DNA of 64,000 nucleotides from Psammoneis japonica. Its lineage: Eukaryota. Positions 12,490 through 59,667 of the stretch are shown here, in pieces. The stretch is from contig QPGO01000200.1 in NCBI GenBank assembly GCA_008632985.1, positions 1-64,000 on the forward strand. Direction: 5' to 3'. The notes under the pieces were generated by a model. That model saw only the letters and a program-made list of their open reading frames with translations, made no database searches and was not told the origin of the DNA. Made by a program: the position numbers and the translations under genes. Every line of letters starts with the position of its first letter. Within the stretch, counting starts at the first letter, position 1.

Positions 12490-12491
12490 AG

Positions 12492-34652: not shown

Positions 34653-34955
34653 GGTTCTTGTCTTGCACTTGCGTTGTTTGCCCGTCCACGATCTTGTGTC
34701 CGCTGCGGTGGTAGTACGGTATTTTTTTGTGCCTCTCATCGATCATCGACATTGCTTGGCGAGCCCGATAACGGCTTTAAACTTACGATCTTCATACCTT
34801 AATTTTAAATTTAATTTTTAAGATTATTATGTTATATATAAGGAGTTCGTACCGTGCAACCTATAAATAGCATACTAAATTTAATGATCAATTTTATGAC
34901 GTATATGTAGATTATACGCACTGCTTGACAGCAAAGGCGAGAGGCGGGCCAGAAA

Positions 34956-36635: not shown

Positions 36636-36820
36636 TCATGACACCGTGACAAAATTGGCTTTCCGTTCTGTTTCTAATAGACAGACGACGCTCAAAATGC
36701 AGCTCTTACTAGAACACGAACAAACAATGGCCTTAGGCCCTTTCCATGTTCAACGTCGCCAATACTCATCAAAATGTACAGTTAGGCTAGAGGATTGTGT
36801 GACAATTGAGAACAAGTTCA

Positions 36821-37051
36821 TCGTGGGACCCCACAAATACGGAGGGACCCGGAATGTGTAGAGTCTACGTAATGTAGGACTGTTCACGTAGGTTTTGTAC
36901 CAGAGCTATCTCGCGAACTAGGCGTTTTTTCGGATTTTTGTCGTAGAAACTGTACCAGTTTTGCGTATGTAGGCTACATGTTTCAGTACCACATACAAAA
37001 ATTCGCGTAGAGCTCTACAGGAGGGTCCCTCCGTATTTGTGGGGTCTCACG
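36821..37051. repeat. ~230-bp fold-back element with ~45-bp terminal inverted repeats (MITE-like)
   Basis: GTGGGACCCCACAAATACGGAGGGACCC at 36823 versus GGGTCCCTCCGTATTTGTGGGGTCTCAC at 37023. Confidence 0.7.
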
Positions 37052-38710
37052 CACTCCCTCGGATCGTAACATATTTCAACTGGCGCACAGAGAGATTTCT
37101 ACGTGATTTCTACGTACCTCGTACGAATCACGTAGCCGTAATAGCACAAAACGTCTGGCCTCCACCCCAATCCTATGCCGGTAACACTCCACACTCCCGC
37201 CTATTTATTGTACCGGCCGGTACCAAGAGGTTCGATTCTCTCATGCTTTTGAACTTCATTCAGCACCCCGTCTACTCACCACCAGTCCAAAACAACACGA
37301 GTGCATCTCTTTCAACTGGAAAGTTGATTGACAGAAGAGTGAAGAAAGATCTCTTTCAGAACTTTTACTCTCTTGACTGTACCAGCATAATGTAAGTGTG
37401 ACGAATCGGGAAACTCGGGTCGAGTCGTCGACACGGCCGGATTGAAGTCAAAAGGAGGTCCGCAGGAAAACAAAACAAATAAAGAGCTAAGAGAGTTATA
37501 ATAAGACTGTGAAAAGATGCCAGCTCGATTCCCAGATAAAGGTGACTCGATGCAAAAAATCGATACTACTCATTGCATGGAGTGATCTGAGTAACAAACC
37601 CCGGCCAATCGCACGATACTTTGCACCTCGGGCAAGAATAAAGCCCACCCAACAGTATCTGAATAATTCCCATAGGAGTGATGTTTCTGTCACCAATCTT
37701 CTCCAAATCAAACATTGCCAGCATAACCACGTACACGTCCTTTTCCCACCTGCAAATGCTCCTTGAAACCAACTGATCCACCACGAATGACGTTGTTGTA
37801 ACCTGCAAAGATGTCCTCCAAGAGATTGATATCTTTCGACCTCCTAATGATACCAAGTTTTCTGGGTTGTCAAATAGATCAGGGTGTCCATAATGTCATC
37901 GGATGCAGAGAGGTCTTCAAGGAATTTCTTGCAAGGCCACCTAGCTTGCCAGAGAACTCACACACCGTGTTTTAATACATGATCCATGAACACCACTGTT
38001 TGTATCATCAACATATTCCATAAAGTAAATCATGAGGCCCTTTCGTGGGAAGAATCTGCGTGCGGACCGAGAAACAAACAGAATAAGTGCCGGACCGCTG
38101 TCGTCTGTTGGAAACACACCAACCACGAGCCGCGACGTCCAGAGCTCGTCTCAAACACTCCAAAGGTGCCATACACATCAGCGCCTTTTATCTATATTTA
38201 TTATGAAACGAATGAGGCATAGGTAAAGGGATGAGAGGAGGGAAATAATAACAAACTCGACGAAACATACCGGAACGACGACAACAGCGGCAGACTCATA
38301 CACCGAAGGAATCGAAATCGATATTCTTGCGCGGAGTGGCACTTGTCAAAATTCAGCCAACACGTAATGGTGCTATAGACAAATGTCGACAATATCCTGA
38401 GTGACTCACCTCGTGAAAACAGGTGACAACGACGGTGGACGCGAAACAAATTCGCCATGGTGGCTACGCAAATTCTGCGTAGAATTTTTCGTTTTTGTAC
38501 CAGGAACCAAAAAAATCGCACGTTGCGATTTTTTTAAGCTGTGCCAGTTAGCCTGGTACAGCGNCAAGTTGCTTTGAAATTTGAATATCAACATACGAAC
38601 CAATGGCCCTACAAACACAAACTTCAGTCGTAGTCTAGACTACCTCTACTCTAGCCAACCTGGGTTCATCCTTGGTCTCTACTGCATTACTACACTGAAG
38701 CGAAGCATAA

Positions 38711-38735
38711 TCTACTCTACTCTACTCTACTCTAC
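38711..38735. repeat. (TCTAC)5 microsatellite within a CTAG/TAGAG-rich tract
   Basis: Read directly from the sequence. Confidence 0.9.
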
Positions 38736-38889
38736 TAGAGCACCGGTAGCTACTCTAGCTAGAGTAGAGAGAATACGGTAGGGCCTACTCTAGCTGGACC
38801 TAGCTGCCGGCAAGGAACCTTGTCTTCCCGGCGCCCGTCGCGAACTGCGGAAATTCATAGATTGCAACCGTCACGACGGCCAAGTCGCT

Positions 38890-39823
38890 CAATGATGGCG
38901 TGTGCTGAGGCCTATTATCAACAGACATCATCAGCACCGTCGATTGGAAGAGTGGTGGAGGAATTGTGAGGGACATGTTGGACTTCCGGCATTGGAATTG
39001 AGAGGAGAGTCAGTGGTCGAGGAGAGCATTCCGCACTTGCCACCCGCATCCCATCCATTCTTGAGCTTGACAGTGACACTTTTGTGCATGAGCAGGCTCC
39101 ACTCTTGATTGCCTTGTCTTGTGCATCCCTCCAGTTTGATGAAAAGGTACACAATTCATCACAAAGGTGTTTCATTCTAACAATGCTTCATCAGTGACCG
39201 AATCTGACTCTTGTCTTTGTACTTACCGTAGAAGAAGGGAACCGTCTCTATTGTTCTTACGGCATGGATGGCTAGGTTGTTTTAGAGCCTCGATGGTCTT
39301 CATCCAACTTTTACGGAGACTTGACTGTTTCCCTCTTTCAGCTGCACCTAACCTTGAGTGTCTTTCATCCCGACGTCAAGGAGGAGAATTTCATGTATTG
39401 CAGCCCCAAGCCAAGGACGACTGTTGCCAAAAGACTTGGTAGCAGTAGGGCCTATGGCATTGGCTTTGGAGGTACCGCAGACAATCCACGTTTGTTTCTT
39501 CCACTCACCTTGGAGAAGAGCACCATGCTCGTTATCTAGATCGCACGTAAAAGAATGGTCATTTGCTTCCTGTCGAAGCCTTGGAAAAGTTTCAAATAAA
39601 GTTTCTCGACTTACGGGGCGCAGGTGGTGCCGAACATTGCGAGACCATGGATGCGGTCCTTCATAAGGCACGCACTGTCGCGGACAAGTGTCAGTTTGCT
39701 GCCAACATGAAGTCGGGCCTCATTGTCAATGACGTCTTTGCCCACCAAAAGGATGTTCATGGACAAGAAGACTTTGTTGTCGATGATGCCCACGGTGGAA
39801 GCAAACACGAACACAGGGCTTAA
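38890..39823 (+). pseudogene. TLDc-domain gene remnant
   Basis: W...FYGD, LFQL, NFMY, GIGFGG..NPRLFL motifs, split by frameshifts and a TAG at 39537. Confidence 0.55.
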
Positions 39824-40183
39824 ACTGCATGCTTGGGTGTACTTGGATTTAGGGTGAGAAATTAGAAGTGTGAGGATCATAGAAAGATTTGGTTGGAGAT
39901 GCTTTTCAATGATTTGGGCGCTCCATGTTTGATAGTCAGGAAAAGGATGAGACTGGCTGTACCACCGCAAGTCGCACTGTACAACTTTTAAAATTCATTT
40001 CTTATTTCGTGTCATCCATGTGTGATTCGCGAAAGCCCAGCACGCAGGTGCAGTACTCTCTAGTATTTGCTCTCTCTGCTCCAACCGTACGTATGGCCTT
40101 CTTCTGTTGACCCGAGCTCGTGATGCCACCGAAAAGGTTTGCTTACTTTCGTGTAATACCGTATCTCTACTAAGCAACGACTA

Positions 40184-40681
40184 TGGGGCTACGACTAGCA
40201 TAAAATGCAATATGATATAATCATTGACATATAAAAAACATTAGTATAATTTATTAATGACGTATATAAAAGAATGTTGAATGACTGCATATGACTTTTT
40301 GTGTAAGATTTGTACTGCTCTACGCACTTAACGAAAAAAATGCTGAGGCAATATATAAAATGACTCTTCCTAAGTACGAATTCAAATGAAGGTCATGCCC
40401 ACGCCCGCCACGCCATTTAATCAAACATTCGAGCATAAATGAAGTAGTATTCAAAGACGGAGTTGACAAACGGAGTATCGACGGTTGAATGTGTCACATC
40501 TACAAAAGCATCTAAATAGTTGAAAAGTATGGACTTTTGTGTGACATTTGTGTATGTAGCACATGTAAAAACTGCTATTTGTTTTGGCAAGAACCGTTAT
40601 CGTTAAATAAAGGTACACATAAAATCCAATACAAAATGTCTGACCGGTATAACAGGTACGTTTATGCTAGTCGTAGCCTCA
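40184..40681. mobile_element. MITE copy 2, complete (~498 bp, ~21-bp TIRs, TA TSD)
   Basis: TA|TGGGGCTACGACTAGCATAAA ... TTTATGCTAGTCGTAGCCTCA|TA; AT-rich and non-coding. Confidence 0.9.
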
Positions 40682-40949
40682 TATACTTCTACTTGAGTCT
40701 CGTGCTCGAGAGAAAGAATTCTGTTAACACTCGTCGACAGAGAATCCAAAGTACTCGAAATTTCGATAGATAACCATGTTTTGTAGGCTATTCCCGGAGG
40801 GTTTCAGGGTATGAAGTCCTCACAATTCTGCCACTTCAGCGTTGAGACAAAGACTGAGAACCCGGTGCCACAGTTTAGTGGGCTACTTGGTGACATTGCT
40901 GCAGTGCATTGTCATGTTTTACATCTGTTTGTTAACTCCGATTTAAGTC

Positions 40950-43000
40950 CCATTCAGCTTGACTTAGAGAAAACCCTGCTCAACTCACATTCCACATCTT
41001 CCTTAATCCAATCTGGGTGCAGGTTCAGATTGGTTTCCATTGAGAGCTCGACCCGCTCCTCTGCAGCGAATCGCACAAATCTGCGCTTTTTGTGGACACG
41101 AAGGATCTCGCCATGTTGAACAATCCAGGATTCGTAGTCACCCATTTCACTGGCGTGCGGAATGTCGCTCAAGATTGCAAATTCATCTTCCGTCGGCTGA
41201 ATGCGGGCAATGACATCATACAATGCAACGTCCTTGATGCTGGGCGACGAAGCGCAGAAGCAGAGCTTGTTCAACTGCATTGTGTCAATTGCCGCCACGA
41301 CGTGAGCAACCACCTCGTCACGTTTCAAACGCAGCGCCTTGCCCAACCAGTCAATGCCCTCAAGCACAAACTGGCGTCGCCGATTGAACTGCGTGCGTCT
41401 TAAAGGGGGACTGCGCAAAGCATGTGCGAATGGACACTGAGCCGGGACGAACATCGAATGGGAACCAGTGGCATGCATCCCGCTTGTCCTTATGGGTGAC
41501 AGCCAAAGAGCTGTTTTGTTCAACAGAGTTTGGATTTCATTGCACAGTGCCATTGCGCAAGTGGTGAAAAATCGCATCGTCAAACGTCAGACCCGCACGC
41601 TCCATCAGCCGAGCTTTCACATGGTGGCACTCATCCCGGAAACAAGAAAGGATGTCGGTCATGCTGCAATCCGAGAGCTTAACTCCAACCAAATTTCCTG
41701 GACTGTGAACATTGTCCATCAGTTCACAAAGGAGAGACAGTGGCTCAAATCGCTCTGTGTGCATTGCCGTGGGTGCCGACTTGGGCTTGCGAGGAATGGG
41801 AAGGTCCAGCACCGCAACGTCATCTCTCGCATCGTCGTCGCTCGCACCGTCGTCATCATTGTCTTCTTCTGCGATCTCCCCATCAGACACCTCTCGCTCT
41901 GGAACATCCACAGCTGCAACAGTGTGAAAATTGGAAACGGCAACAGGGAAAAGAGCTTTTGCCACAATGTTCTGCGAGCTCGTGTCGTTTGCAAAGGCCA
42001 CTCCACGATCCTTCTGACTCGCCAAGAAGAGAGCAATGTTCTCGCTCTGCTTCATCTGGAGCTTAATCTCCGCGTCCTTTAAAGCTTTTTCTTGGCCCCG
42101 CTTCGTTTGTTCGATCTCCGCGTCCTTTAAAGCTTTTTCCCGGTCCCGCTTCGTTTGTTCAGCCTTTCGACGGGTGGCCGCGATTCGTTGCGCTTCTGCC
42201 TTGTCCAACTTTTTCCTGTTGCAGGACTTGCGAGAGGCACGCGAGCTCTTGTTGGTAGAGCACTTCGAGCCAATCTTCTTGCCAGCCACAGTGCTTTCTC
42301 AATCGCATTGAAGTTTTTGTTGTTCCTGTCGTTGTGACAGTGAGCCGAGAGGTTATTGGCGATTGGCATCGTCGAAAGTTTTTCAAACATTTTAACAAAC
42401 AAACGTTTCACATGGTTTGTCGTTTCAGTCCCGTGTCCCGTTGTCGCTCACCCGCCACCCATTTTGAAACGTTTCCGAAACAAACAAGCGAATGCCGATC
42501 ACCATGTGCAAAAAGCGGAGAATCGTTCAACGTGCCGTCCGCCTCTAGAGTACGGTACTCGTTCCAATGAGCTCCATGGTTTGATGTTTGATGTGTTTGA
42601 TCTTGATCTTGATGCGTTTTCCGTTATTTTGATGATGGATGCCGTCAATGTGTTTATAAAAAGCCTCCAAATATGTATAAAAAGTCATTTTACTTTCTCT
42701 AAATCTGTTTTGAATGACCGGACAACACGAGAAGACCCGGAGAAAATGTCCATTTGATTTTGAACGAGTTTTCCTACCAGGTTGTCGTAGAGAAATCCGG
42801 GGCATCGAAGGAAATGTCCATCCGATCTTTTCCGATTTTGAACGAGTTTTTTCTACAGTACCGAATTGACGTAGTTCACAGGGCTTAAGTATAAATGACC
42901 ACAAAAATGTCGCATGTGTTGTCAAGTGTTTATCTATAGCCCTTACTGCCCAAATCCGATCTTTTCCGATTTTGAACGCCTTTTCCCTACCAGAAAGACG
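40950..43000 (-). mobile_element. Putative decayed DNA transposon with a TpA-depleted coding interior and subterminal repeats
   Basis: ORFs 41537-42289 and 40954-41583 are nearly Tyr-free. GATTTTGAACG..TTTT..CTAC repeated three times at ~42755, 42833 and 42967. No transposase motif recognised. Confidence 0.4.
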
Positions 43001-43238
43001 TATTTCACGGGGCAATATAAGATGATGACTACAAATATGTCACACTACTTATGGAAAGTCATGAGATTTATTTTAAATCTTTTGCTGTCTTCGTCGTACG
43101 TAAGTCTGTCACGTTTGTTCCATGCACCACTGTACCCCGGACCCCGCCCGGGTACTGTATGTACCGAGCTAAGAGAGTAACCCATAGGCCATGGATATAC
43201 CTTGTCGGCGTTCTTGTAGTAATCGAATCATGTTTCAT

Positions 43239-45404
43239 ATGGGACGTTATGACCCAAAGAATGACAGGCAAGTTGTTGAAAAGGACCATGCTCCAGCGAA
43301 GAGAATTCCAACAAAGAAACAAGGAAGCGGAGCCCGAGATGGTAGCTCGAGCTCGGCGCCTTCAACAGATACTGACGACAGCAGAAGCATTGAACATGAT
43401 ACGAGCATCGGGAAAAATCTACATGTCATAGCACCTGAGCAGAAGACAATGCCCTCGGTAAAAGCTCATGTTGGAGGCACTGACGAGGAATATGATGATT
43501 TTGATTCTGTACAGAACGAGGAACCAGAAATTACTGAGTCAAACCACAATACCAAGGAAATCGCTACTGCGCTTCATATGTCCAGTCTCCCGATAAAAGA
43601 TGCTGCTCATACTTGGGATCTTGCGCCTTTTCTCGTGGAGAACCTACAACGCGATGGGTATGATCATTTTTTCCCCATTCAATCATTAGTCATTCCCAAT
43701 GTCATCTCGTCAGAGCGCCACCCTCACATTCGCGCCCGTGACGTGTGTGTGGCCGCCCCAACAGGGAGCGGCAAAACATTGGCCTTCGTAATTCCTGTGT
43801 TGAATGCCCTTTCTTCACGACGAGTTAGACGACTGCGGGCTTTGGTGGTCCTGCCAAGTCGTGACTTGGGTGAGTCCCTATGATTCTCTCTTTCGTTGTA
43901 GTTTGTGCGTACAGCGTATCTCAACGATCCGACTTTTTCGGCATTAACTCACAGCGACCCAGGTGTTCAAGGTGTTTGATCGCTACACCCACGGCTCTGA
44001 TTTGCACGTAGGTCTAGCGGTAGGGCAAAGAGACTTCTCGACTGAACAGGAGGCGCTGACTGTAGGGCCCAGGGAAGTTTCCCGTTTCGATGATGTTGCA
44101 AGAGCTCGTCACCGATATTCCTTTCATCCTGGGAGTGCAGAACATGCTTTAGAGGCATTCTCCGGTGTGCCAGGGGACGAAAAATCTTTTGTGTTGCCCA
44201 GAGGCGGCAGGAGCGCGGTGGATGTGTTGGTTGCCACACCCGGGCGGTTGGTCGACCACCTTGACAAAACTCCGGGATTTACGTTACAACATTTGCGTTT
44301 TCTTGTTATCGACGAAGCAGACCGTTTAGTCAACCAAAGCTACCATAATTGGATTGATTCTGTTGTCAATGGCACGAACTCGGCTTCGGTCAGAGAATGG
44401 CATAAAGTAGAGCGCGTTTCACCCGTGCTCGATATCGCTCCCGACAAGGACTCTTTCAGTATTGACCCAATCACATGGAGACGAGGAGGCACAGAAGGTG
44501 ATAACTCTTTGTTCAGTACAAACGACAGCTATTCGTCTGTTGTAGCGTCAGTTTGTCGTCCCGTTCAGCTTCGAAAGCTTCTTTACTCGGCAACGTTGAC
44601 AAGAGATCCTCAGAAACTTGCTTCTCTTGGTCTCGTGAACCCAAAACACTTCGATGCTCACTTCATGAACAGAGATTATAATTCGACAAACCGTCAGCCG
44701 CGTCAGAGATACTCCATGCCCCCTGGACTCTCCGAGCACACAGTTGAATGCACGGCGGAACAAAAACCTCTTGTACTGCTTGCGATCGTGCTTGAATACC
44801 TGGCAAAAGGACGGAATCACGAAGATCGTAGTGGTGGCATAATTGTTGTGTTTACTTCTAGTGTTGATTCAACGCATAGACTGGTGCGTCTGTTACAACT
44901 CCTTTGGGCAGCTGCTGCTTTGGGTGCTCCGAATTCGGTCGCGGAATTTTCCAGCGCCCTGAACCAGAAACAGCGATCAAGTTTGATGAAACGCTGCAAT
45001 GCCTCTGATGGAGGTGTCTCTGTTGTTGTGTGTTCTGATGGAATGTCGCGCGGAATGGATTTGCCTTCTGTTGGCGTTGTGATTAACTACGATGTCCCCA
45101 GTTTTGCAAAAACGTACGTTCATCGATGTGGTCGAACAGCCAGGGCCGGTAAAGAGGGGACAGCGATCAGTGTCTTGAAAGGAGGTCAAGTTATCCAGTT
45201 TCAGAGAATGCGAGGTTTATTGATTTCCCTAACCGCGTAACTTCTCTCAAAGTCAAGAAAGAGCTTATTCGCGACGTAATGCCGCTTTACGGTCCATGCG
45301 TTAAAACTCTTCGAAAGGTGATCGAAACGGAAAAAAGTGGGGGGCTGGACAGCGCTTCATCCATTCCAACCCAATGGATTCCATCAGGCATTCGTCATGC
45401 TTAA
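43239..45404 (+). CDS. DBP6: DEAD-box RNA helicase DDX51/Dbp6; intron 43870-43954; apparent 1-nt frameshift near 45220
   Basis: FFPIQ Q-motif, [49 protein letters not shown]. Confidence 0.88.
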
Positions 45405-45649: not shown

Positions 45650-46520
45650 AACCATGCTGGATCTGGTGTCACAAGGGCCTTGTCCTCAGCTGCAGAGGGC
45701 TTGTACGTCGGGTCAAGAATGCGTGCGACGTCTTGGGAGCGGGCCTGTGCGATGATGGAGGTGTGCCACGTGTGCCACTGTTTGTCGGACTTGAGAAGCG
45801 CGAAGGCAAGTGGGTCACGTTTGATGCCTCATTTAAAGTCATGCATGGGATCACGTGGTTTGGGTGGCAACGAGCCAGGAGTGGGAGCAGATGGTGCTGT
45901 GCCCATGGAGAGGGACGCTGCATGCTCAGGACTAAGACGACAGTTGGTGAACTCCTCTTGTGTGAACAATTGAGGGTCATTGCTGACATCCGCGCCGCCG
46001 TGCACTTTCACCCTGTGCAGGCTAATCAACGCAGCCATCTGTGCTTTGTGGCCACGTGGCAAAGGCATTTGATTGGTTCCGTCATTGCACACAAGGGCAT
46101 CCAATTGCATCGGAGTAAAAGTGAAAAGGTCCTGATGCGAATCGGTTCCATCAATGTTGAGAGCGGAGTGCAATGGACTGTCCGCAGCTTGATTCAGAAC
46201 AGTGCCTAGAATGTGCTTGAGGCCATCAATTTGTTGTTGCCTGGTGAGAACCATGTTGCAACCAGGTGGATGTCGGAACCAGCTGGAGTCAGAGGGTGAG
46301 CTTGAAACAACTTGAAACTTGACTTGAATCTTGACTTGATGTCTTGGACTGTCTTGAGAGTCAGAAGCCGCCGGGCTGTGACACCCCGTTCACAGTGAGT
46401 GCTGAGCTTCCCATCTGGTCTGTGGAGTTGTGCCGGCACGTCTGAACCTGCAGCTGGCGATGCTTTGGGTTGCTTGAGAGTGGAGCAACGGGTTAAAAAC
46501 CCCTGCTGACAAGCCAACTG
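45650..46520 (-). mobile_element. Truncated CoDi-type Copia gag fragment
   Basis: ORF 45829-46254 continues past a TGA as DFK*GIKRDPLAFALLKSDKQWHTW...AQARSQDVARILDPTY, which resembles diatom Copia gag. Confidence 0.7.
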
Positions 46521-46675
46521 GAGGTGGACAAGACCTCCGAACCGTTCTTGTTTAATGTCGGTTGGACAACCCGATCAGGCTGGCCAAATTTGGCGCTGTG
46601 GAGGGACGAACAAATGTGGGAAATGCACCCTCGCCCCAACGCAGGCTGTGATCACGAATTGCTTCCTCTCGCAGT

Positions 46676-47054
46676 TGCAACACGCGTTGTCATGCATGTC
46701 ATGTGTGTGTGTGTGCATGTGTTGAACAAATTTATGTTCCAATCGCACGTCAATCGTGGGTTCGTACGAAGGACAGATCAATCACACAGAGTTGATCGGA
46801 TGTCGACAATCGCAAATGCGATCGCACGATGATGTTGACATCTTGCGTGTCAATGTCAATCGCATCCGGACAATCTGTTGTCCCGATCATGTTCTCAGAA
46901 AGGCCTTTTGTCTGTGGGAGCAGTGCAAAAGGTTTGGGCCATTGAGAACCCGTTCGGAGAAATCCAAAATGATTGTGCAGAAACAATTCTCACAATTTTC
47001 ACCTTTTGAACTTCGTTCTGCTTTCGTTTGCACTCATTCTTCAAGCACAGTGCA
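46676..47054 (+). repeat. Gypsy 5' LTR
   Basis: Aligns without gaps to 51458-51836. Confidence 0.95.
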
Positions 47055-47089
47055 TTGTGCATGCACACCACAGAAGGCAACTAGTTCAA

Positions 47090-48243
47090 GATGAAGCTTT
47101 CACCTCAGGCAACCAAGGCCAAGACTTCGTCAAGGCAGGAAAGAGAATCGTTCCTCAACCGTTGGAATCGAACTCCGAGCCGAAGAGCCTCAAACCGAGC
47201 CAGTGTCTCAAGATGGAGCAGTGTTTTCATCCGGAGAAGAAGGACAGTCGGACCTGCACGATCAACGTCGAGTGCTGCAAGAAACAGGGCGTTCCCAAGC
47301 ACATCGAATTTTTAAAGAGCTGCGATCAACTTCTGGTGGGCCAGAACATCAGTGAGCAAGCCGACAAGTTCCGTCTCATGCATGTGTTGTTACAAGGAGA
47401 CGCTCTACGTGCTTTTGAGAATGCAGCGGCAAACATTGAAGATGAATCTGCGGAAGGAAGCTTCAAGAAATGCCCACAGCACCTCACAAAACATGTGTTT
47501 CCCAAGAACGCACTTTCGGTTCAGAAACGTCATCTACGTCGCGATCTCAAGAAGCCCGAGTCCATGAAAGTGCGCGAGATTGCTGCTTGGGTCCAGGAAG
47601 TTAACGAAGACCTCAAGTTCCATCCTCCCTTTGGAAAGGATCAGAAGATCGAGGAGGACGAGCTCAAGGACATCCTCTTCAATCTTGCACCTCGAAAGTG
47701 GCAGCGCCAGTCGACCGTCCAGGGTTTCGAAATTTTGAAACATGCCTGCGACAAGTTGGTTGAGTTTTTGGAGCGCCTGGAGGTCGCTGAGGATGCACTC
47801 GATGGCATTCATGCCAAGGCTGATCCCAGCAGCAGTGCTGGATTGAAAGCCAAGAGTGGTTCCCAACGTGGTTCCAAAAATGGTCACCAACATGGCACCA
47901 AAAATCTCAGTCCACAAGTGGTGCATTCTTGCAAAAATCCACTCACAATGCGGACAAGTGCTGGTCGACTAAAAGACTTGCAAAAGAATGCCGTGGGAAC
48001 TGTGAACCCGACCCAAAATGGCGCCATTCAAATGGCAATCGCATGTGGTCTCGTCGCGATAACAACAACGCCACTCGCAAAGAAGAGTTGAATGCTGTGG
48101 CAGTCCAAGCAGTTCAAAAATTGCTCAAAGCGAGTTCTTTGAACAATCGTGAAAAGCGCAAGAGCAAAGATTGTGACTCTGACACCCTTGACGAGGAGAA
48201 TTGTCAGTTTGAAAAATTGACGCGCAGCGATTCTGAGGAATGA
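47090..48243 (+). pseudogene. Gypsy gag remnant
   Basis: Lies within Tyr-free ORF 46973-48091 (LLQGDALRAFE, VFPKNALSVQKRHLRR, VEFLERLE). Confidence 0.8.
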
Positions 48244-48329
48244 CTTGCACCACAAGAGGAGTCTTGCGCACTGCTGGACATCAGGAAGCCCAGAAAAAGG
48301 GCCAAGATGACTCACACTGGTCCAGTTGT

Positions 48330-51300
48330 CATCGCTTGTATGAACACTTCTCCAGGTAAAGCGAAAAACTAGCCTCTGCGCGTTCTCCTTGACAGCAGAA
48401 CATCGTCAACCACAATTTTGCGCAAATTCACGCGGAAACTCAGAACCAAAGCATCCGCCACCAAACTCTGGGAAACCAAAGGAGGGCTCTTTACCACTGA
48501 CAGTCAATGTAAAATCCAGTTCTCCTGCCCGAATTTGACAAACACAAGATGATCGAAACAACGGTGTGTGTTGACAGCTCCTCTTCTTCTTCAAGTCATC
48601 ACGATGTGATCATGGGACGTGACTTAATGTCGAGTCTTGGGACAATGTAGACTTCTCGAACAAAGAGATCAAATGGGAAGATGCAGCTGCTCCTATGAAG
48701 AATGTTGATGCACTCTTCGATGCCGATGTTTTTAAGTTGATTGCCGATCACATTGAGGAATCTCGTGCAGCGATCAGTCTCAATGACAGGGTCAATCGGA
48801 TCCTTGACTCAGACTGTCATGCCACAAACCTCACAATGTGACAGCAGCAGCTGCTCATCTAACTCCTGAAGAGCAGAAGCAGCTGAACTTCCTTTTAAAA
48901 AGATTTGAAAATCCTTTTGATGGTTCTCCAGGCAAATGGACCGGGAAGCCAGTGGATTTAAAGTTGAATCGGGCGTGAGTCCGCATCATGCCAAACCATT
49001 TCCCGTGCCACAAGCCTTGGAGGCGACTGCTCGTAAAGAGGTTGAAAGACCATGCAGGTTAAAAGTTTTAAGAAAAACAAATTGCTCTGAATGGGCCACT
49101 CCAACTTTCGTTCAACCCAAGAAAAATGGTCGAGTTTGATTTCCACCCAACTTTCGTGAGCTGAACAAGAGGTTGATGCACACTCCGTTTCCTCTGCCCA
49201 ACTTTCAGGACATGCTGCAGAAACTTGAAGGTTTCATGATTGCAACGTCCCTGGATTTAAATGTGGGATGCCATCATGTCAAGCTGACGCTGCACGCACG
49301 TCGTTTGTGCACGATTGTCATGCCTTGGGGCAAGTCTGAGCACTGTAGACTCCCTGTCGGAATCTGTGGAGCTCCAGACATTTTCCAAGAGCACATGAGT
49401 GAGCTCATGGCAGGTCTGGAGTTCGTCAGAACTTGCATTGACGACACATTGTGCCTTGCAAAAGGTGATTTTCAAGACCACCTCAAGAAGCTTGAGATGG
49501 TGTTTTCTCACCTAGAACAAGCTGGATTGAAGGTCAATGCCAAAAAGTCTTTTTTCGCTAAACCCGAAGTGGGCTGTCTGGGCTTCCACATCACTTGCAA
49601 TGGCATCAGCCCAATTCCAAAAAAGGTAGAAGCGATTCATGCGATCGCAACTCCTGAAACTTGGGAGGAATTACGACGCTTTGTTGGTGTGATCAACTGC
49701 TGTCGAGACATGTGGCCTTGACGATCTCATGTTTTAGCTCCTTCAGCCAAACTCACTTCAACACAAGTGAAGTGGCAATGGACCGAAACAGAACAAAAAG
49801 CCTTCGAAAATGTGAAGCGCATAATTTCCAAGATGTGTTGCTGTCATGTCCGAATTTCAATGTGCCCTTTGAGATGCACACTGATGCGAGCAATTCTCAA
49901 TTGGGGGCAGTCATTGCGCAGAAGAACCAACCAATTGCCTTCTGCAGCCACAAGCTGAATGGAGTGCAGACGCGTTGTGCTGCAACAGAAAAAGAACTGT
50001 TGTCCACAGTGGAGATCAAAGGAGTTCCGAAATGTGCTGTTTGGCCAACAGACAAACATGTGCGCGGATCACAAAAATCTCACACACAAAAATTTCACAA
50101 CGGACAGAGTCATGCGTTGCGTCTGACAACAGAAGAACACAGTCCTAAAATGATGTGCCTTGAGGGCAAGGCGAATGTTGTCGCAGATGCGATCAGCCGA
50201 CTTGCTGTGAAAAAAAACAGAACCTGTGAAAACCCTCAGCACAGAAGAGTTGGCTGAGAAGGTCCTGCCAAAATCCCGTGACAATGTCTTTCCGTTAAAT
50301 TGTGAAGTTCTTGATCATGAACAAAAACGGAACAAAGACATTCTCTCCAAATTGTCAAATGAGACATTTCACATGAAGACTTTTCGTGGAGGCGAGCGAG
50401 ACCGGTTGCTCACATGTCACAAGGAAAAAATCATCGTCCCAAGACGTTACAAAAAGCAGTGACAGATTGGCATCATGCGCACCTTCTTCACCCTGGCATA
50501 AATCAAACAGAAGAACAATCTCACAACACCTGTGGTGGTCCACCTTGCGTGAAGACATACGAAAATGCGTGTCAAGATGTGAGACATGCCAGAAATTCAA
50601 AAAGAAACATGAGAAATGTGGTCATTTACCTCCCAAGTGTGCAGAATCAGTGCCATGGGAACGACTGTGTGTGGATCCCATTGGGCCATGCAAAATGCGT
50701 CACAAGAGAGAGAAAGAACCCCCAGTCCTGAAATGTTTGACAATGATTGATCCGGCAACCAGATGGTTTGAAGTTGTGGAAATCCAAAAAGGAATCCACA
50801 ACTGCAGCCGGATTGTTAGAACGAACATGGTTGGGTAGACATCCTTGGCCATCGTCAATCACATGTGACCGTGGAAGTGAGTTCATCGGACACCAGTTTA
50901 AAGACATGGTGCAAGAGGATTGTGGCATTGAAGTCAAGCCTGCCAACTGCACGAAATCCACAAGCAAACGCAATTGTTGAACTCGCACATCAAGTGCTCG
51001 GAAATGACCCGTGCACTTGATTTGCAGCACACACCTCTGGATGCTGAGGATCCCTTTGCTGGAACATTGTCAGCAGCAGCTTTTGCTGTGCGTTCTGCAC
51101 ATCATGCTGCCACACAAGCTGCACCTGGACAATTGGTTTCAACAGGGACATGACATTCGACGTCCAACATGTCGCAGACTGGAAATTAATCCAGCAGCGA
51201 AAACAAGAAATCACAAATGAAAATGACGCTCGAGAGAATGCTCAACGTGCTCCTCACACGCACAGAGTGGGAGAGAAAATGCCACTCAAAAAAGACTCGC

Positions 51301-51431
51301 AGAAATTAGAACAGCCCCATGTTGGACTGCATGCAATGACAACGGCACATGCCAATGGCACAGCACAGATCAAACGCGGCAACGTCATTGACGCTGTCAA
51401 CATTCGTCGGACAATGCCGTTTAATGACTGA
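48330..51431 (+). pseudogene. Gypsy pol (PR-RT-RH-IN), fragmented
   Basis: ORFs 48936-49139, 49173-49721, 49661-50257, 50386-50838, 50747-50980 and 51150-51431. Confidence 0.92.
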
Positions 51432-51457
51432 CTCTAATGTGCAATTGGGGAGGCGAA

Positions 51458-51836
51458 TGCAATGTGCGTTGTCATGCACATTGTGCATGTGCACATCTGC
51501 ATGTCAAATAAATTTGCGCTCCAATCGTGCGTCAATCGTGGGTTCGTACAAAGGACAGATCAATCACACAGAGTTGGTCGGATGACGAGAATCGCAAATG
51601 CGATCGTACGATGATGTTGACATCTTGCGTGTCAATGTCAATCGCATCCGGACAATCTGTTGTCCCGATCATGTTCTCCGAAAGGCCTTTTGTCTGCAGG
51701 AGCAGTGCAAAAGGTTTGGGCCATTGAGAACCCATTCGGAAAAATCCAAAATGATTGCGCAGAAATGACTCTCACAATTTTCACTTTTTGAACTTCGCTC
51801 TACTTTCGTTTGCACTCGTTCTTCGAGCACAGTGCA
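51458..51836 (+). repeat. Gypsy 3' LTR
   Basis: Direct repeat of 46676-47054, directly after the PPT. Confidence 0.95.
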
Positions 51837-52654
51837 CAGTTGTCCTCGTGGACCCTGCAGGACTGCAGAAGACCAGCAATCCGGTGCAGATGCGAGGCGG
51901 CAGACTTGGCGTGCGCAGAGCAGAGCCAGAGTTGGGGATTTGTGTCGTGTGTGTGTGAACGCATTCGGGTGCATTGGCAGGATCCGCTGCAAGGAATCCG
52001 GAATCTCAGATGTCTGAGAATTTAGGAATTCCCAGCCAAACAAACATCCGTTGAAAACAAGTGTGTCCAACGATGGGAGGTGTCGGATGAATCCAAACGT
52101 GTGGATTTAATCCAGCACTCAGCAGTGAAGAAGGCAGATGTGTGCTTCCACCGCCAACCGTGCGCATCATCGAAAATTTCTCGATGACGATGATGAACGC
52201 TCAATGGACAACAAAGAGCAAGACCGCCAATCTGACAGAAAATGAAGACAACTGGGTGGAAGAAAACAACAACTCCTCACTGCTGTCTGAGCAGCAGATG
52301 AGTCTCCGTGCAGAGACCATTGCAGGAGCCGAAAGACTGGTGTCGTGACATCGGTGCTGCTGTTGTCATTCTTGTGAGCTCTGTGGCTCGAAAGCAAACT
52401 ACATCGCGCGACGCGCGCGGAACTGAGAGCACACATGATTGTGTGTGACAAACTAAAATCTTGTTCAAATCCTGTCAGCGCGAAAGTGCAGCGTGGTTTT
52501 GTGCTGTCCTCAACAATCGACCAAGCCGGTCATTTGACACCTGACCTGACCCAACAAGTTAAAGCAGGCTTTGATGATTGTGTCTGGCGGTTGGACAGTG
52601 TTAAACAACCTGAGGTGGCTTTCATAAGACAACCAGCAAGAGGACACATTTTTG

Positions 52655-53260
52655 GTCGTGAAAATCCACGTTGCGGAAAAGTACAACGCGGTTTGTACTG
52701 GAATTGACGTAGAATTCTACAGGGATAATATTTTGAGCGCCGTTATTTTTAAATATTGTGGATATTCGTGCCGAATGGGGCATTGACATGCTAATGCTAA
52801 TTATTATATATCATACGATGACATACATGTATATATAATCCTGGCTGCACTTTCCTACAACGGTGTGGAGAATGACCGGAAAATGACTGTGACCCAAAAA
52901 TCGTACACTGTTGCACAAAAGCGCAACGATGCGCGGACCAGGGATGTGATGTACCCTGATTATCATAGAAAATCTGTACGAAAATCAAAATCTGTACCTA
53001 TTTTTGAGGGGCTTGAAAAAATCTGTACCTATTCTGCACGGAAATCTGGAATCTGTACCCCAGTGCAAATGTACGTAGGATGTACGTAGAACGCGCCAGG
53101 CCTACCTGGAAGGGGTTCTTCAAATCTGAGAAAATCCAAAGCCAGTTTTAGCAAAATCAATGAAAATCTATACTTTTTGAGAATCTGTGCCTATTTCTCC
53201 GGAAGCCTTGAAAATCTGTACCTGTTTTAAACCAAAATCTGGAGTGCAGATTTTCTATGA
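52655..53260. repeat. Structured terminus-like region with an inverted repeat and clustered AAAATCTGTAC motifs
   Basis: CGTTGCGGAAAAGTACAAC (~52668) versus GCTGCACTTTCCTACAACG (~52844). AA(A)TCTGTAC at ~52970, 52988, 53018, 53050 and 53212. Confidence 0.55.
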
Positions 53261-53599
53261 TAATCAGGGTACTGCATCTACAGCATCGCGAAACCCATGC
53301 AGTTTTGAAGTTCACGCGGTCAAAATCTACGGTGCAGCATGCAACAGGTTCAAGGTGTGCACGGAAATTCTTCCTCCAGGCCAGCTGTCTCACATTGACA
53401 GTTTCAAGTTGAGCGTCTTGTTGCAGAAAAACTTGTTGTTTCTCTCTCTCCTCTCTCTTTGATGCACTGCATGAAGATTTGCTTCTTGAAAGCCGTGCTT
53501 GGCTTTCTCTGTGTCCCTGCCTTTTGGGCGGATGCAAAGCTCCAGTGTGAACATCGGGGCCCAGGTTTCGGCAGCCACAATCCAAAGGCACGCGCTTGC

Positions 53600-56500
53600 A
53601 GCTTGACGTGCAAGTTGGATCCCTGCGGCAAGTGAAGTCAAGACAAAAATCGACAGGTGATCCATTCATGTGGCATGTGATGGCATCAACATGGACAGCA
53701 TCTCAAAGTCCATTTTGTTCTCTTTCCCTTTTGCTTTTGCTCTTTCAACTCCATCCTTCTCAAGGTCCAAAAGGGCTGCGAGATGCCGCCTCGTTCATCA
53801 CAGACGAGTTGGCACCAATGTCCATGTTGGTCTGCTCATTGGGTGATGAAGAAAGCGGGAACATCTTGAATCTTTACAACTTGCTCATGGTTGTTAGAGG
53901 CATTGCTGTGAACAACCCCTTCTGTGCAATTCGCTCCGACTGCTTCACCGTTTGCACCATCATCAGGCCGATCGATGTAATTTCGAACATCGTGAGGAAA
54001 GTGAGAAAGGCAAGTGCTCTCCTTGTGTCTCATTGTGCCTGTGAGACGCGTCTCCACACTGTTCACACACATCAATTGTTGCCACTTGTTTCCTTCGTTC
54101 TGACAATGATTGGCTTCAGGTTCCAGTCCTCAAAACGAGGGCGGAAAAGATTGAAAAAGGATGGAAACCAGCCAGTTTGGTCAACAAGTTGGACAAAAAA
54201 CTGGAGGAAAAGTGCAAGCAGTTCAGTGGTTTCAAGGGCAGAATCGTCGACAAAATCCTGGGTGTGCTGGCCAAACTCATTTGCTGCTGCAAGCTTGCAG
54301 AGCCTTTTCTCACCAACTTGTGTGCGACTCCCTCTGTGAAACAAACAATGACATTGCTGTCTTCAAACGCTTTGCGGATGTAAGTTTCTTGTGTGATCCC
54401 CCGCAGACTTTTTTGCTGTGACATCTCTCTCACGCTCTTTCCCCATTGTCTGTGCAGCTTTTCAAGTGAAGAATTCGGAAGAAGCAGCGGGAGAGAAGTC
54501 TCTTGAGGGGCAAACCCCGAAACGGCACTGCGACAGTGGGGGATCTCATTTCGGATGAGGAAATGCACGAATCGTTCCACCACGCTCTTGCGAATGTCGA
54601 AGATCCACACGCGGCAGCCATGCTCAAGAAGTGGCACATTTTGCGTTTTGACCAAATTCGGAAGATGCCATTTGACGAAGTCCAACAAGTCCAAATGAAC
54701 ACCATGGTGAACGGCCGACGTCTGGGTCCAGTGGAAGACTTTGATGACACGGATTTGAGAGCTGTGCTTGATGCTTTGCAAGACTGGGCTGGTTCGTTCC
54801 AGGCAATGGACAAAAAGATTGGCGAGCTCAACGATCAAGTCATCATTCCAGCACAGGAGTGCATTGGGAAATTGTTTTCTGAAGATGGCATTCTCAAGAC
54901 CATTGCAAGGATTCTGGAGCCAATGCAGCCAGTCTTCAACGTTCTTGATGAGATCTCTCAGCATCTCGAGTGTCTGGCATGCCCCGATGAATTGGGCTTC
55001 ATCTGTGATCTAGACCAAATCATTGAAGACGAAGTGAAGAAATTGTCAGCGAAGGCCGGAATTGACGTCGATGCTCTCATTGATGCCTTCGTTGATGAGA
55101 TCACTGGTGCTCTAGAAGCCCTGGGAGTTCCTGCACCAGACGTCATTGATGCAAATGTCCCCAATCTGGTTGATTTGCCATCACTGGAAAACTTTGAGGC
55201 ATTCTTCCTTGCTCCGCTTGAAGCGAAACTCGAAGCGTTTGTGGCAGCTCCAAACATTGATCCACTCAAACAGCTCTTCGACCGTTCAGGAAATGTGGAT
55301 GTGACCGCAGGAACCAGCGCTTTTGAATGCTTGTGCGCATCAGTGTCCAAACAAAATGCTGTGTTGCTGGATTGTCCCAGTTCCGAGTTTCCAGTGGCGC
55401 TGAATGCAAAGAGGCAAACGGCCGTTTGCGAATGTGACGAATTCTCTTCAAGGGTTGTTGCCCCTTGCGGAACTGATGGGTCCCGGAGCTCCTGCGACAT
55501 TGACGGTGCAATGCACGGCCGTTCAGACTGCAACGGTGAACCAGTGCTGCCCATCAGTGATGTCGCAGGCATTGATTCCTCGCAAGATTTGCTCAGAGTG
55601 TCTGCCAACTGCATTTGCGCCACTCCGACAGAATTCAAGGATTTGGGCCTCATGCCGATCTACTTCACTGAGGAAGACCCCAATTCTCTGCAGTGCGGCC
55701 TTGGAGAGCAGATCGCTGTCTTGAAAGCGGTTGCGCGGGATCCTTGCGAAACTGGCCGGGCTGCTAACGAGAAATCTCCTTTCTTCAGAGAGTGGAATTG
55801 TTGGTGTGATCTCAGTGTCAGGTTCATGAATGACCCCCTCCCAGGCAACTCAAACTTTGAAACCATCTTCGATTTTCTTGTTGCTGTGAAAATGTCGCGT
55901 GACCAGCACCATGACGATTTGACAGAGTGTGCAAAACTCAACCAAAAAAGCTTTTTGTGGGTCATTCGGACATGAGCGAAGATTTTCCGGGCCAGTTCCA
56001 GTCCGTCTGTGCTGAGGATCAAATGGCGATCGTTCGTACAATGATTTTCTCCAAGACGGTGGCTCGAGCAACAGTTGCGACACGCATCAAGACACTCATC
56101 TCGAGTGCTTTTGTGATTTTGAGTGCCCCTCACCCGACGGTTGGGACGACTTTGATGATCCAGATTCACTGGTCAACGATTGATGACATTGGTGGTGGAG
56201 GCTGGTGGTGTGACTGGGATGAGCGGTTCTCAATTACGGCGGCAGCCTTTGGCAATCTGGCAGGTTTTTGGGAAAAAGGAAGAAACAGAGCTGCAGACAT
56301 TCTTGCCGATGCCCTGAGTTTTGAAGCAGAGTGTCTTGAGATTCTTCAGGAAGAATGCGATGGAGAGCAGCAGTGTGACCTTGTCAACTCAAATCAGTTG
56401 CTTGATTGTTTCGCGAGCTGCCAAACCAGTTCAGGGAACACCGTCCCATTGCAAAACACGAGATTTCTTGTTCGTGTTTCTTGGATGGTCGGGACATCTC

Positions 56501-58373
56501 AACGCCTGGGAAAAATCTTTTCATTGCAGTTGGTTTTCGAGATGCTGCTGCAAGCAGCATGACTTTGGAATGCCCAGAGTTTGGTGTCACAAACGTCCTT
56601 TCAGCGGAGGCAGGTGACGGAGGTTTTACCAACAAAGTGAACTTGGATTGCAGGGGCCAGACGGACAGAACTCTGTCGTCATCGACAACAACACTTTGGG
56701 AGTCACCACCAGCGCATTTGCATTGAGTGCGAATGCATTTGTGAGGCTCCCAAGATCCCTCTGTTGGTCTACAACAAGGACACGTCTACTTTCAGCTGCG
56801 ATCCATGCAAAAAGGGAACGCATTGGGATGCCAGCATGGCAGACTGTGAAGCATGTCCCCCTGGAACTTTTTGGACTTGGATTCCGGCGCGTCAAGTTGC
56901 ACGAATTGCCTTGCTGGGAGCGTCAGCCGGATGCGGATTCTCAACCTGCATCGACTGCTCTCCAGGGACATGCAACCCTTCGGACAGTCAAACCGAGGAA
57001 AAAGCTTGCCTTCCTTGCCCTGTGAACCGGTTCAACACTGATGCAGGAAAGGATTCCTGCGGGCCGTGTCCTGCAGGGTCTGAAGCACCCTCGGAGGGTG
57101 GCACAGCATGTGCCAAAGTCGCGAGGGTTTCTTCTCTTTCAAGGGGGAGTCCGCTGAACCATGTCACCTGGTGCTTGCAGCAATGCTGAAGGGGCACCTG
57201 ACAGGTGCGTGGACTGTCCAGAAGGGTCATTCGCAGCCAACGAGGAAGCGAAAATTGTGAGCGTGCCCAATCGACACATGCGCGGATGGCAGGGAATGTG
57301 AGCATCCAGTGGCAGGAAACCAGGGACAGTGGATGCCATGGTGTCAGTCTGGTCATGACTGTACTTGATGAGCTCGTCGGAGTGTGGCAGTGGGGATGTG
57401 GACTGGGCAATCTGGAATGCGACGCAATGTTGGAGAGCCGCATTGGTCAGCTTGGAAATGGCATGCAACAAAGGTGGTGGATGGAATGCGGAACAATGCG
57501 GGTGCGATGGGGGAGATTGCTGTCCTCACACATGGCATGCTTTGGATCGCTGCTGTCGACTTGTCACGCCATCTTTCTTCGAGAATCTGGTGCCAATCCA
57601 TTCTTTATGCGTGTTTTTCACCAGCACGATCCCTGATGATTTTGATCCAATGTGACAGGTGTTGGCACATTGGAAAATCTTTGTTCCTGGAGCACTTGCA
57701 ATTGTCTTGATCCAAGGCATGCGGTGACGCCGTGCAGCATTGACAGGGAAGAACTGTGCTCTGAGACCGGTGTCACACCAAATCAGTTCCTCCAGCTTGT
57801 TTGGATCGCCCTCTGACGGCTTCTGTGACTCTGAACTCAACACCAAAGAATTCAATTTTGATGGAGGTGATTGTTGTCTTGGAACTTGTGTCAAAACCAC
57901 TGGCAGGTGGACAACGGTCTGGCATTTCTTCCTCTGCTTTATCATTTCATGCCACTCATTGGATTTCTCACGTTTCTTTTGACTTTCAGATCCGGCATCA
58001 TGCGAAGAGATCCCATGCACGTGTCTGGCTCCAATGCCAATGCCTTCAAACATGCCATCAATGGAGCCCAGTGCTCAACCCAGTGCAGAACCCAGTGACC
58101 AACCCAGTGAATGCCAAGCTCCCAACCCAGTGTAGAGCCAGGTGCACGTGCTCACCTCATGGTTCTCGAGGTGGAAGAGCTTGTCACCGCTGGCACTCTC
58201 CGGCCAACAAGAGTGCAAACATCATCAAGAAACTGGAAAATTCAGCCAAATTTGTCGACCAGGGCAACTGCAGCAGTGCCATTGTTCAGATGGACATTTT
58301 CAAGAAGAATCTGCTCAAGAACGTGACTCCAAGTGAAGCAAAGAGTTTGATTGAGACTGCCAACAACAATTGA
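53600..58373 (+). pseudogene. Large multidomain Cys-rich extracellular protein gene (GCC2_GCC3/TNFR-like repeats, LNR/Notch repeats, PS-rich stalk), inactivated
   Basis: CEACPPGT, CLPCPVNRFN..GKDSCGPCPAG, CDA..N..QCGCDGGDCC, DGFCDSELNT..FNFDGGDCC, PSNMPSMEPSAQPS. The 490-aa ORF 54503-55975 has a single Tyr; many frameshifts. Confidence 0.7.
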
Positions 58374-59667
58374 TCAGCTGACTTCTTTTTGAATTGAGCT
58401 GGGCCTGCGGGAAATGGCAAATTTTGCCAAATTGTTGGATGAACACTGGAAGCATCATTTTTGTACAGTTCGCCATTTTTTTTTGACGGGGACATGCAAT
58501 GATGCGAAGTGAAAAGTGCTGATGTCAACACCCCTTTTTCTGAAGACAAACTTGTGTTTTCGGGGAAAGTTGCCCATCATTGGTGATTCAAAAAGCACAG
58601 AAACACAGCGACCTTTTCAAAAACATTCATGTTCTGAACGCCCAACAACACAAAAAACAGCCTTGCCCAGGGAAATCGAGCACAGCAGCAGCAAAGTCCT
58701 CAGGAATGTTCATGACCATGCAATTCGTCAATCTTCAAGCCTTGAGAAGAGCTGGCACACCAGCTCATCTCCTTTCTTGCGCAAACATCTGCTTGCCCAC
58801 AACAGAAACAACGCAGTCGTGGTCTCAGAACATCTCCGTCTGCAGCTTTGTCAGGCCCCGCAGCAGGGTCAGAGGACATCTCGCAGGATGTTCTCTGCTT
58901 TTTGCTTGTTGTGCAGCCAAGACAAGTCCTCGACACACCAGCCAGGGAACATGGTTCACATCGACTTCATTTGCATCATTCTTGGATGTGGGGCCTGCTG
59001 CTTGCCCAGTGCAGCAGCAATGTGGTCATGGTCCAGATCCCAGAGTCATGAGTGCAAATGCCTGCCAACCCACGACAGCACTCTCAAGGTTGTGGCCTGT
59101 TCCAGCTCCAGGTGATCTGCTTTTCATCACTCGAGAGGCCGATTTTCTGTGCAGTTCAGTGCAATTAACTCCTTCAATTTTGATCGTTTCGAAAATCGAA
59201 AGGTGAGTGTACACCCGAAAATGCATGCAAAGTGTGCACCTGCCCTTCGATTTGGCAAAAACGGACTTGGAAAAAGTCAATTGCGCCAAATGCACAAATT
59301 TCCAAATGATGGGAATCGAACCCGCGCGGAGCACCTGGAGCTGGAACAGGCCTTGTCGTTTGCAACAATGAATCATCTGGCATCAATGACAGAGCTGCTT
59401 AGAGATGAAGTCCAATTTTATGATTGGGCACCGGCATGGAGCAACGATGACGTGCTACACAGGCGGCTGTGCTCCAAAAATCTGTTAGTCTGTCCATCAC
59501 TCCGTCATTGGGCTGCCAATTTACAGTAGGGCCCTATTTCGACTTTCGACTTTCGACAAGCTTTTTCGACACATGACAAAAACAACTGACACAATGAGGA
59601 TCGACGGGACGCAAACTCCGTAGGTGTTTCTTTTATAAGGCTTACCATATCATACTTACAGCTCGCA

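Follow-up and report, generated by a model that had tools for sequence, protein, structure and literature searches.

Why do the two long terminal repeats (LTRs) of a single retrotransposon in the diatom Psammoneis japonica differ so often by CA in one copy and TG in the other? The element occupies positions 46676-51836 of a 64,000-nucleotide stretch (assembly GCA_008632985.1, contig QPGO01000200.1, positions 1 to 64,000; the whole stretch is called the window below), and it is the remains of a Ty3/gypsy LTR retrotransposon, no longer active, within the genome of a diatom. An original prediction, made from the sequence, held that TA steps had been rewritten in DNA on both strands after insertion, nearly to saturation. 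Support for that claim comes from the rate fit, the composition, the loss of tyrosine (Tyr) and the LTR differences described below, and we conclude that the host probably has a process directed against repeated or silenced DNA, which turned nearly every TpA into CpA or TpG after the element had inserted. The identification as a gypsy LTR pair was also borne out: both LTRs read TGCA...TGCA (TG start, CA end), the element is flanked by a CAGT target duplication, and the pol domains run from reverse transcriptase (RT) through RNase H to integrase, all on the + strand, which is the Ty3/gypsy order.

The two LTRs (46676-47054 and 51458-51836) align over 379 columns without a gap and with 88.1% identity, and this pairwise alignment showed the predicted coordinates and gapless 379-bp match to be exact. 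There are 45 differences, 41 of them transitions and four transversions. Reciprocal doublets, with CA in one LTR and TG in the other, had been put at about a dozen and number 12; when 41 transitions and 4 transversions were placed randomly on the 5' LTR in 20,000 trials, the mean was 0.92 doublets and the maximum five, so the observed count is above chance. All the strings given as examples are present (TTGAACAAA/TCAAATAAA, TCGCACGT/TCGTGCGT, AAACAA/AAATGA, ATCGCACG/ATCGTACG, TCTGCT/TCTACT and TTTATG/TTTGCG). TA retained in a single copy, as predicted, was found at four sites where the other LTR has CA or TG, and one further site keeps TA in both. The prediction did not mention seven sites with CG in one LTR and TG or CA in the other; CG is unchanged in both copies at 18 sites. 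Outside pyrimidine-purine steps the LTRs differ in 7 of 170 columns (4.1%), and inside such steps in 38 of 209.

The doublets are concentrated at the start of the LTR, with 9 of the 12 in columns 1-49 and 8 of the 12 inside the tract of columns 18-49. Pyrimidine-purine alternation is almost unbroken across columns 18-46, where about 14 units can be counted, seven of them discordant between copies. The description of the first 50 bp or so as two TG/CA mosaics thus holds. Its proposed (TA)n origin is not seen directly; from the tests of TA ancestry that follow, we infer that the opening tract was once TA-rich or (TA)n. The TGCA termini may likewise descend from TGTA and TACA, as the prediction proposed.

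A CA/TG doublet is symmetric, since one mutation per copy generates it from either TA or CG, and by itself it cannot separate the two. The doublets could accordingly have been CG steps that each LTR lost as TG or as CA by ordinary methylated-CpG decay. Diatom transposons are CpG-methylated according to the available text of two reports (PMC5124317, PMC11842555), CG has been lost from the older blocks of the window, and the seven LTR sites with CG in one copy are what such decay would leave. However, the site counts fit a TA ancestor and not a CG ancestor. For TA, with one site unchanged, four changed in one copy and 12 changed in opposite ways, a single rate fits (q=0.89 per copy, p=0.25). For CG, the corresponding counts of 18, 7 and 12 reject a single rate (G=23.3, p=1.4e-6); half of the CG steps would need to be saturated and the other half, the 18 left alone in both copies, untouched. 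Composition was examined by reinstating the ancestral step in the 12 doublets that can be seen and in about 12 hidden ones that are expected. Restoring TA brings the observed-to-expected ratio (O/E) of TA in the LTR to an ordinary 0.5-0.8, while restoring CG brings CG O/E to 1.5-1.8, an implausible excess. In relatives from metagenomes (25 loci), those with ordinary CG, at about 1.0, have TA O/E of 0.73-0.93 and 9-13 Tyr in RT; low TA does not characterise the family as such. Five of the metagenome relatives show CpG decay alone and keep TA at 0.71-0.78, and therefore the TA process is not universal among hosts of the clade; the LTRs have TA O/E of 0.07-0.14 while their CG O/E is 1.09-1.17.

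The coding sequence provided a further test. The 150 best RT relatives were aligned to the internal region by tblastn, and columns with at least 60% agreement among at least eight relatives were considered. None of the seven conserved Tyr columns is kept; the codons are now TGC or TGT in five (Cys), CAT in one (His) and TCT in one (Ser). For the remaining residue types taken together, 157 of 203 conserved columns still hold the expected residue (Fisher p=4.8e-5 versus Tyr). Conserved Arg columns are kept in nine of 12, six still as CGN, and of the others one reads TGA (from CGA) and one CAC (from CGC). The RT remnant as a whole, 193 aa long, lacks Tyr and has 10 Cys along with 10 His, with GYYH altered to GCHH, YIDD to CIDD and NYYRD to NCCRD. 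Transposition needs these residues, so the changes post-date the element's last transposition. Taken on these sequence tests, the doublet ancestor appears to have been TA and not CG, and we regard methylated-CpG decay as an extremely improbable source of the doublets.

The changes were made at the level of DNA and after insertion, because the two LTRs diverged independently. Editing before integration, by an ADAR/ADAT-like enzyme turning UA into UG in the transcript with the result fixed by reverse transcription, would match the taste of TadA/ADAT-type enzymes for A-to-G change after U/T, as well as the 5:1 ratio of TGY to CAY in the pol-frame Tyr columns. Yet both LTRs are copied from one template, so that none of the 45 differences, the 12 opposite doublets among them, can be older than integration. 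The outcomes are also balanced, the 5' LTR having CA at five doublets and TG at seven; CA exceeds TG in the internal region (434 against 380, with 44 TA and 176 CG); and repeats that do not look transcribed are affected too. This leaves RNA editing a minute chance as the sole cause. Both strands are about equally affected, and the CA/TG counts of the LTRs and of the internal region give no sign of a transcription-strand bias. Per LTR copy, about 89% of TA steps have changed, against about 2% at other sites; by LTR-pair arithmetic, TA steps decay roughly 50-100x as fast as ordinary sites, and for CG steps the factor is about 4x.

TA loss is a property of the repeats of the window generally and is not private to the gypsy element, which had gone unnoticed in the original prediction. 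Across 400-bp bins TA O/E is bimodal, with 76 of 160 bins below 0.2, and TA-free blocks cover about 60% of the window. Four repeat blocks, 23,161 bp when summed, contain 105 TA (O/E 0.07) and 546 CG (O/E 0.40), compared with 1012 TA (O/E 0.60) and 1332 CG (O/E 1.00) in 24,000 bp of host gene-bearing blocks. The repeats have CA/TG O/E of 1.6-1.8, and their G+C stays at about 47-50%. Six transposon ORFs (open reading frames; gypsy and copia-like) encode 2 Tyr in 1555 aa, and four host ORFs 48 in 1911 aa. Comparison of the window with itself gave no second copy of the gypsy element in the 64 kb. It did give a second diverged repeat pair (5226-5774 vs 12312-12880), in which 5605-5774 and 12312-12491 differ by CA/TG doublets like those of the LTR pair.

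CG loss follows a different course across the same blocks. The whole element has TA O/E of 0.14 but CG O/E of 0.77, while CG O/E is 0.27-0.30 at 4001-12000 and 0.05-0.07 at 18001-24000. In three blocks (1-1200, 41201-42000 and the gypsy block) TA is near 0 with CG at 0.7-0.9, and the reverse is seen in none. Blocks that are TA-free with CG at 0.8-0.9 imply that TA loss does not require CpG loss, and in the repeat blocks TA loss precedes CG loss. Methyl-CpG decay is thus also present in the repeats, as a second and slower process.

If no targeting were involved, a TA-destroying mutation bias could act on the whole genome, with selection keeping TA in genes and control regions and neutral, dead transposons displaying the bias. 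Every TA-free block does look like a non-functional repeat, and TA O/E in the host blocks is itself lowish, at 0.60. A rate of 50-100x background, however, would strip weakly constrained spacers, and the 18 kb of host sequence at 26001-44000, gene spacers included, has TA O/E of 0.5-0.9 in nearly every 400-bp bin. Moreover, the distribution of bins is bimodal and not graded, and a non-coding-looking island at 52700-53330 has TA O/E near 1.0 with knife-sharp edges. We therefore consider a bias without targeting quite unlikely, and retain a process directed at repeated or silenced DNA.

The gypsy family is high-copy. In run X1, 5059 contigs align to the stretch at 80% likeness or more, 559 of them being at least 99% alike; runs X2 and X3 gave one contig each. 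Run X1 has contigs of up to 315 kb and word depths of about 50-130, and may be the source sample. Transitions dominate at the 1261 variable places in these contigs, with 219 A>G, 237 T>C, 283 C>T and 318 G>A, compared with 18-43 of each transversion type. These copies bear on whether the signal is real DNA. Modified motifs cause systematic consensus errors in nanopore assemblies, and long-read base calling might render a modified base at the TA steps of repeats as TG or CA although the true DNA was still TA. Against such an artefact, the depth and length of the run X1 contigs, which include the 559 near-identical ones, suggest accurate reads, the element has frame breaks, and the LTRs also differ outside pyrimidine-purine steps. 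In addition, five of 150 unrelated RT database representatives (P0018, P0078, P0094, P0142 and P0147) are fragments of RT in which Tyr makes up 0-1% of residues and Cys and His together about 10%; they are probably translated TA-decayed repeats.

Further evidence against an artefact comes from sediment metagenomes, where three copies of another, related gypsy family (L004, L006 and L018) are 89-91% identical, with TA O/E of 0.43-0.59 and CG O/E of 0.25-0.33; YIDD reads HIDD in two of them. With substitutions polarised two-against-one, T>C occurred at 20 of 219 TA site-lineages versus 23 of 831 other T (p=1.4e-4), and A>G at 15 of 219 versus 36 of 1371 other A (p=0.003). Transitions at TA are about 3-fold in excess, and the three copies are a milder form of the same TA bias. 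A sequencing or assembly artefact is, on this evidence, very improbable. A search of metagenome contigs with a degenerate LTR pattern gave no matches.

The surviving TA steps depend on their neighbours. Counts in repeat and host blocks, respectively, were 26/50 for TTAA, 18/102 for GTAA, 16/87 for CTAA, 7/48 for CTAG, 14/151 for ATAA, 14/166 for CTAC, 6/83 for GTAC, 2/108 for ATAG, 2/133 for ATAC and 0/84 for ATAT. ATAT, ATAC and ATAG are therefore nearly extinct, and TTAA is the best survivor. Multiplying two terms, one for each strand, fits these ratios: in T-A-N, exposure of the A is highest with T as N, intermediate with C or G, and lowest with A.

Each such change amounts to an A:T-to-G:C transition that falls on the A of either strand within a 5'-TA-3' step. 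We propose that an enzyme modifies one base of TpA in silenced repeats, and that copying of this altered base yields the transition. Two candidates could do so. The somewhat favoured one, itself below an even chance, would be a TET/JBP-type dioxygenase oxidising the thymine methyl group to 5-hydroxymethyluracil (5hmU) or 5-formyluracil, which mispairs with G. Only a little behind it, a TadA/ADAT-type deaminase would turn adenine into hypoxanthine; enzymes of this type prefer an A preceded by U/T. A smaller but appreciable share of the probability goes to something other than these two. No candidate enzyme gene was found in the 64-kb window. N6-methyladenine (6mA) sits at ApT, not TpA. As a cause of the changes 6mA was set aside, the available text on Phaeodactylum tricornutum reporting 5-methylcytosine (5mC) only (PMC12695648). 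The consequences are seen in the element: Tyr codons became Cys and His codons, catalytic motifs died (as in YIDD to CIDD), TA-rich LTR sequence was erased, and G+C did not fall. In a more general form, some diatoms may possess a dedicated genome-defence editor of A:T to G:C in DNA, recognising repeated or silenced sequence, in mirror image to repeat-induced point mutation (RIP) of fungi. Such an editor would either deaminate adenine in DNA or modify thymine in a mutagenic way, and would kill transposons through their Tyr codons and TA-rich control sequence while leaving the DNA no richer in AT; we advance this idea tentatively, at slightly below an even chance.

Several points weigh against the proposed process. 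The enzymatic mechanism is suggested by the mutation signature, and TA ancestry at the LTR doublets by indirect tests and not by a family consensus. No transition at TA accounts for the TCT (Ser) now present in one of the seven conserved Tyr columns. At 37 listed sites of the element where nearly all other contigs differ, TA-to-TG/CA accounts for 3, CG-to-TG/CA for 7 and TG-to-CG for 3; these sites come from the best-supported 40 of the 1261 variable places, are biased to sites that are stable in other copies, and cannot polarise hypermutable sites. In the context counts, host-block TA frequencies are a proxy for the ancestral baseline, and some TTAA may have been newly made from the abundant TCAA and TTGA. 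The TA-normal island at 52700-53330 lies inside a TA-poor domain, so that targeting is not simply regional; the island is either young or not seen by the process. TC is not depleted (O/E 1.08 in repeats vs 1.11 in host blocks), a mismatch with the preference of dinoflagellate 5hmU for TA plus TC. A mutation footprint, on the other hand, need not mirror the preference with which a mark is placed. As to the marks themselves, base-resolution mapping in Breviolum gave no 5hmU motif (PMC11071213, in the text available), P. tricornutum is reported to carry only 5mC and no 6mA (PMC12695648), and our literature search, within the texts open to it, met no report of 5hmU in diatoms.

Among known systems, the nearest likeness is to fungal RIP, which is also a transition hypermutation at one dinucleotide, acts on integrated repeats on both strands nearly to saturation, spares unique genes and kills transposon ORFs. 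Unlike here, RIP turns CpA/TpG into TpA and leaves AT-rich repeats, and it belongs to ascomycete fungi, the host here being a diatom; in the window TpA becomes CpA/TpG, G+C is about 47-50% and the RIP indices would read inverted. RIP also acts on duplicated sequence only, ahead of meiosis, and depends on methyltransferases of the RID/DIM-2 type; on the side of the diatom, what is observed is confinement to repeat blocks and a high-copy gypsy family. The fungal signature of TpA excess in AT-rich repeats is absent, with TA O/E at 0.07 and CA/TG O/E at 1.6-1.8. Methyl-CpG decay shares the TG/CA products and the same repeat blocks, and is itself active here on a slower clock, but its substrate is CG and not TA, and it leaves the Tyr loss, the TA O/E of 0.07 and the blocks that are TA-free with CG intact unexplained. 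ADAR/APOBEC editing of retroelements likewise gives clustered transitions in retrotransposon copies; those, however, are made on one strand, in RNA or cDNA, and both LTRs have them in common, in contrast to the symmetric, post-integration changes seen here.

The 5hmU of dinoflagellates, which have TET/JBP homologues, is closer in some respects. According to the available text of PMC11572971 it prefers TA and TC steps, sits on transposons and silences them, so that TA preference and repeat location are shared, and an oxidised thymine could give T-to-C. It differs in that TC is not depleted in the window, and that source, in the part available, describes no TA decay for dinoflagellate repeats.

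A full-text literature search, with subscription journals and supplements outside it, found no description, for diatoms or any other organisms, of repeats decaying from TpA to CpA/TpG within the texts covered; all its matches to TpA concerned fungal RIP, in the opposite direction. Maumus 2009 (PMC2806351), in its available part, mentions CpG methylation only. CpG methylation of diatom transposons is already known from the accessible parts of the two reports cited above (PMC5124317, PMC11842555). We class the finding as a repeat-directed point mutation of new direction. If it held genome-wide, a major marine algal group would have met the problem solved by RIP in fungi in a second way, with the opposite chemistry. 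We know of no natural process by which a single dinucleotide of chromosomal DNA is driven through A:T-to-G:C transitions; if the enzyme were found, its chemistry would be new and of interest to the DNA modification and base editing fields. There are also practical consequences. LTR-divergence dating is inflated about 3-fold here (11.9% over all sites vs 4.1% outside pyrimidine-purine steps). The loss of TAA and TAG stops makes false long ORFs in dead repeats, which gene callers would over-predict and which end up in protein databases as "proteins" free of Tyr and rich in Cys and His. The signal of TA loss would escape repeat finders that are set up for RIP or CpG decay.

The features of the element and the TA-free blocks of the window are collected in Table 1. 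The boundaries of the element belong to one insertion, as a paralogous empty site indicates: in the run X3 contig the left flank runs straight into sequence like the right flank, with a single CAGT. The part of the left flank at 46476-46661 has very high contig depth. A 372-aa ORF upstream of the RT remnant has no Pfam match, and an Rfam scan of the window gave no matches.

Table 1. Positions of the parts of the gypsy element, its flanks and the TA-free blocks in the window.
Feature	Positions	Strand	Basis or remark
Left target-site duplication, CAGT	46672..46675	+	read directly; repeated after the 3' LTR
5' LTR, 379 bp, TG...CA ends	46676..47054	+	gapless alignment; TA O/E 0.07, CG O/E 1.09
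Alternating pyrimidine-purine tract, 5' LTR columns 18-49	46693..46724	+	now a TG/CA mosaic
Internal region, frames broken	47055..51457	+	ORF lists; TA O/E 0.15
RT remnant	49140..49721	+	Pfam RVT_1, E 7.5e-15; alignment with 22 database relatives
RNase H remnant	49658..50257	+	Pfam RT_RNaseH_2, E 1e-15, plus RT_RNaseH
Integrase zinc-binding domain remnant	50377..50838	+	Pfam Integrase_H2C2, E 4.9e-8
Polypurine-tract-like run adjoining the 3' LTR	51447..51457	+	read directly; putative function, from position
3' LTR, 379 bp	51458..51836	+	TA O/E 0.14, CG O/E 1.17
Right target-site duplication, CAGT	51837..51840	+	read directly
Left flank, older TA-poor repeat hosting the insertion	45800..46671	.	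2-3 TA per 300 bp vs 15-19 expected
Right flank, older TA-poor repeat, sharp end at ~52690	51841..52690	.	TA counts
TA-free block	1-1200		CG O/E 0.8-0.9
TA-free block	about 3200-12800		copia-like SH3_retrovirus and RVT_2 matches
TA-free block	about 17600-25200		
TA-free block	41200-42000		CG O/E 0.8-0.9
TA-free block	about 45800-52690		holds the gypsy element
TA-free block	about 53330-59200		

The host blocks carry an MRS2-like gene, QueH, a DEAD helicase and a protein kinase. The QueH ORF (32260-33468) has 68-79% identity to proteins of Skeletonema, Thalassiosira, Chaetoceros and Seminavis. By these gene similarities the host is a diatom. A search of the window for a spliced-leader motif gave three matches with three mismatches, a result equalled in 8 of 100 shuffles, and a dinoflagellate origin, considered because of 5hmU at TA, was rejected on this result and on the diatom-like genes.

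The copia-like element extends over about 5200-12900, with a SH3_retrovirus match at 9008-9964 and a weak RVT_2 match at 10797-11759. Over 638 aa its ORFs have just 2 Tyr, while Cys amounts to 6% and His to 4-7%. At its ends lies a common core of 180 bp (86% identity) adjoining tandem units of about 190 bp, which lie on opposite sides of the core at either end. The 7.6-kb block at about 17600-25200 has TA O/E of 0.02-0.06, CG O/E of 0.05-0.07 and CA/TG O/E of 1.8-2.1; six ORFs were tried in it, none with a Pfam match, and it is presumably the oldest repeat of the window. The block at 41200-42000 adjoins tandem repeats of 15 bp and 48 bp (41813-42160).

There are 98 ORFs of at least 130 aa in the 64 kb, most of them without a family match; the scarcity of TAA and TAG in dead repeats makes the stop-to-stop ORFs there very long. 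One ORF in a TA-free block (56641-57189) has Ephrin_rec_like / TNFR-like cysteine repeats; this could be a gene in decay, or else the many Cys could simply result from Tyr codons having decayed to Cys. The island at 52700-53330 has 46 TA in about 630 bp and sharp edges. It holds a 322-bp unit resembling a miniature inverted-repeat transposable element, with internal repeats of about 31 nt and terminal inverted repeats of 29 nt (52951-52979 and 53244-53272) that are 97% complementary. The single mismatch between the two arms is TA versus CA.

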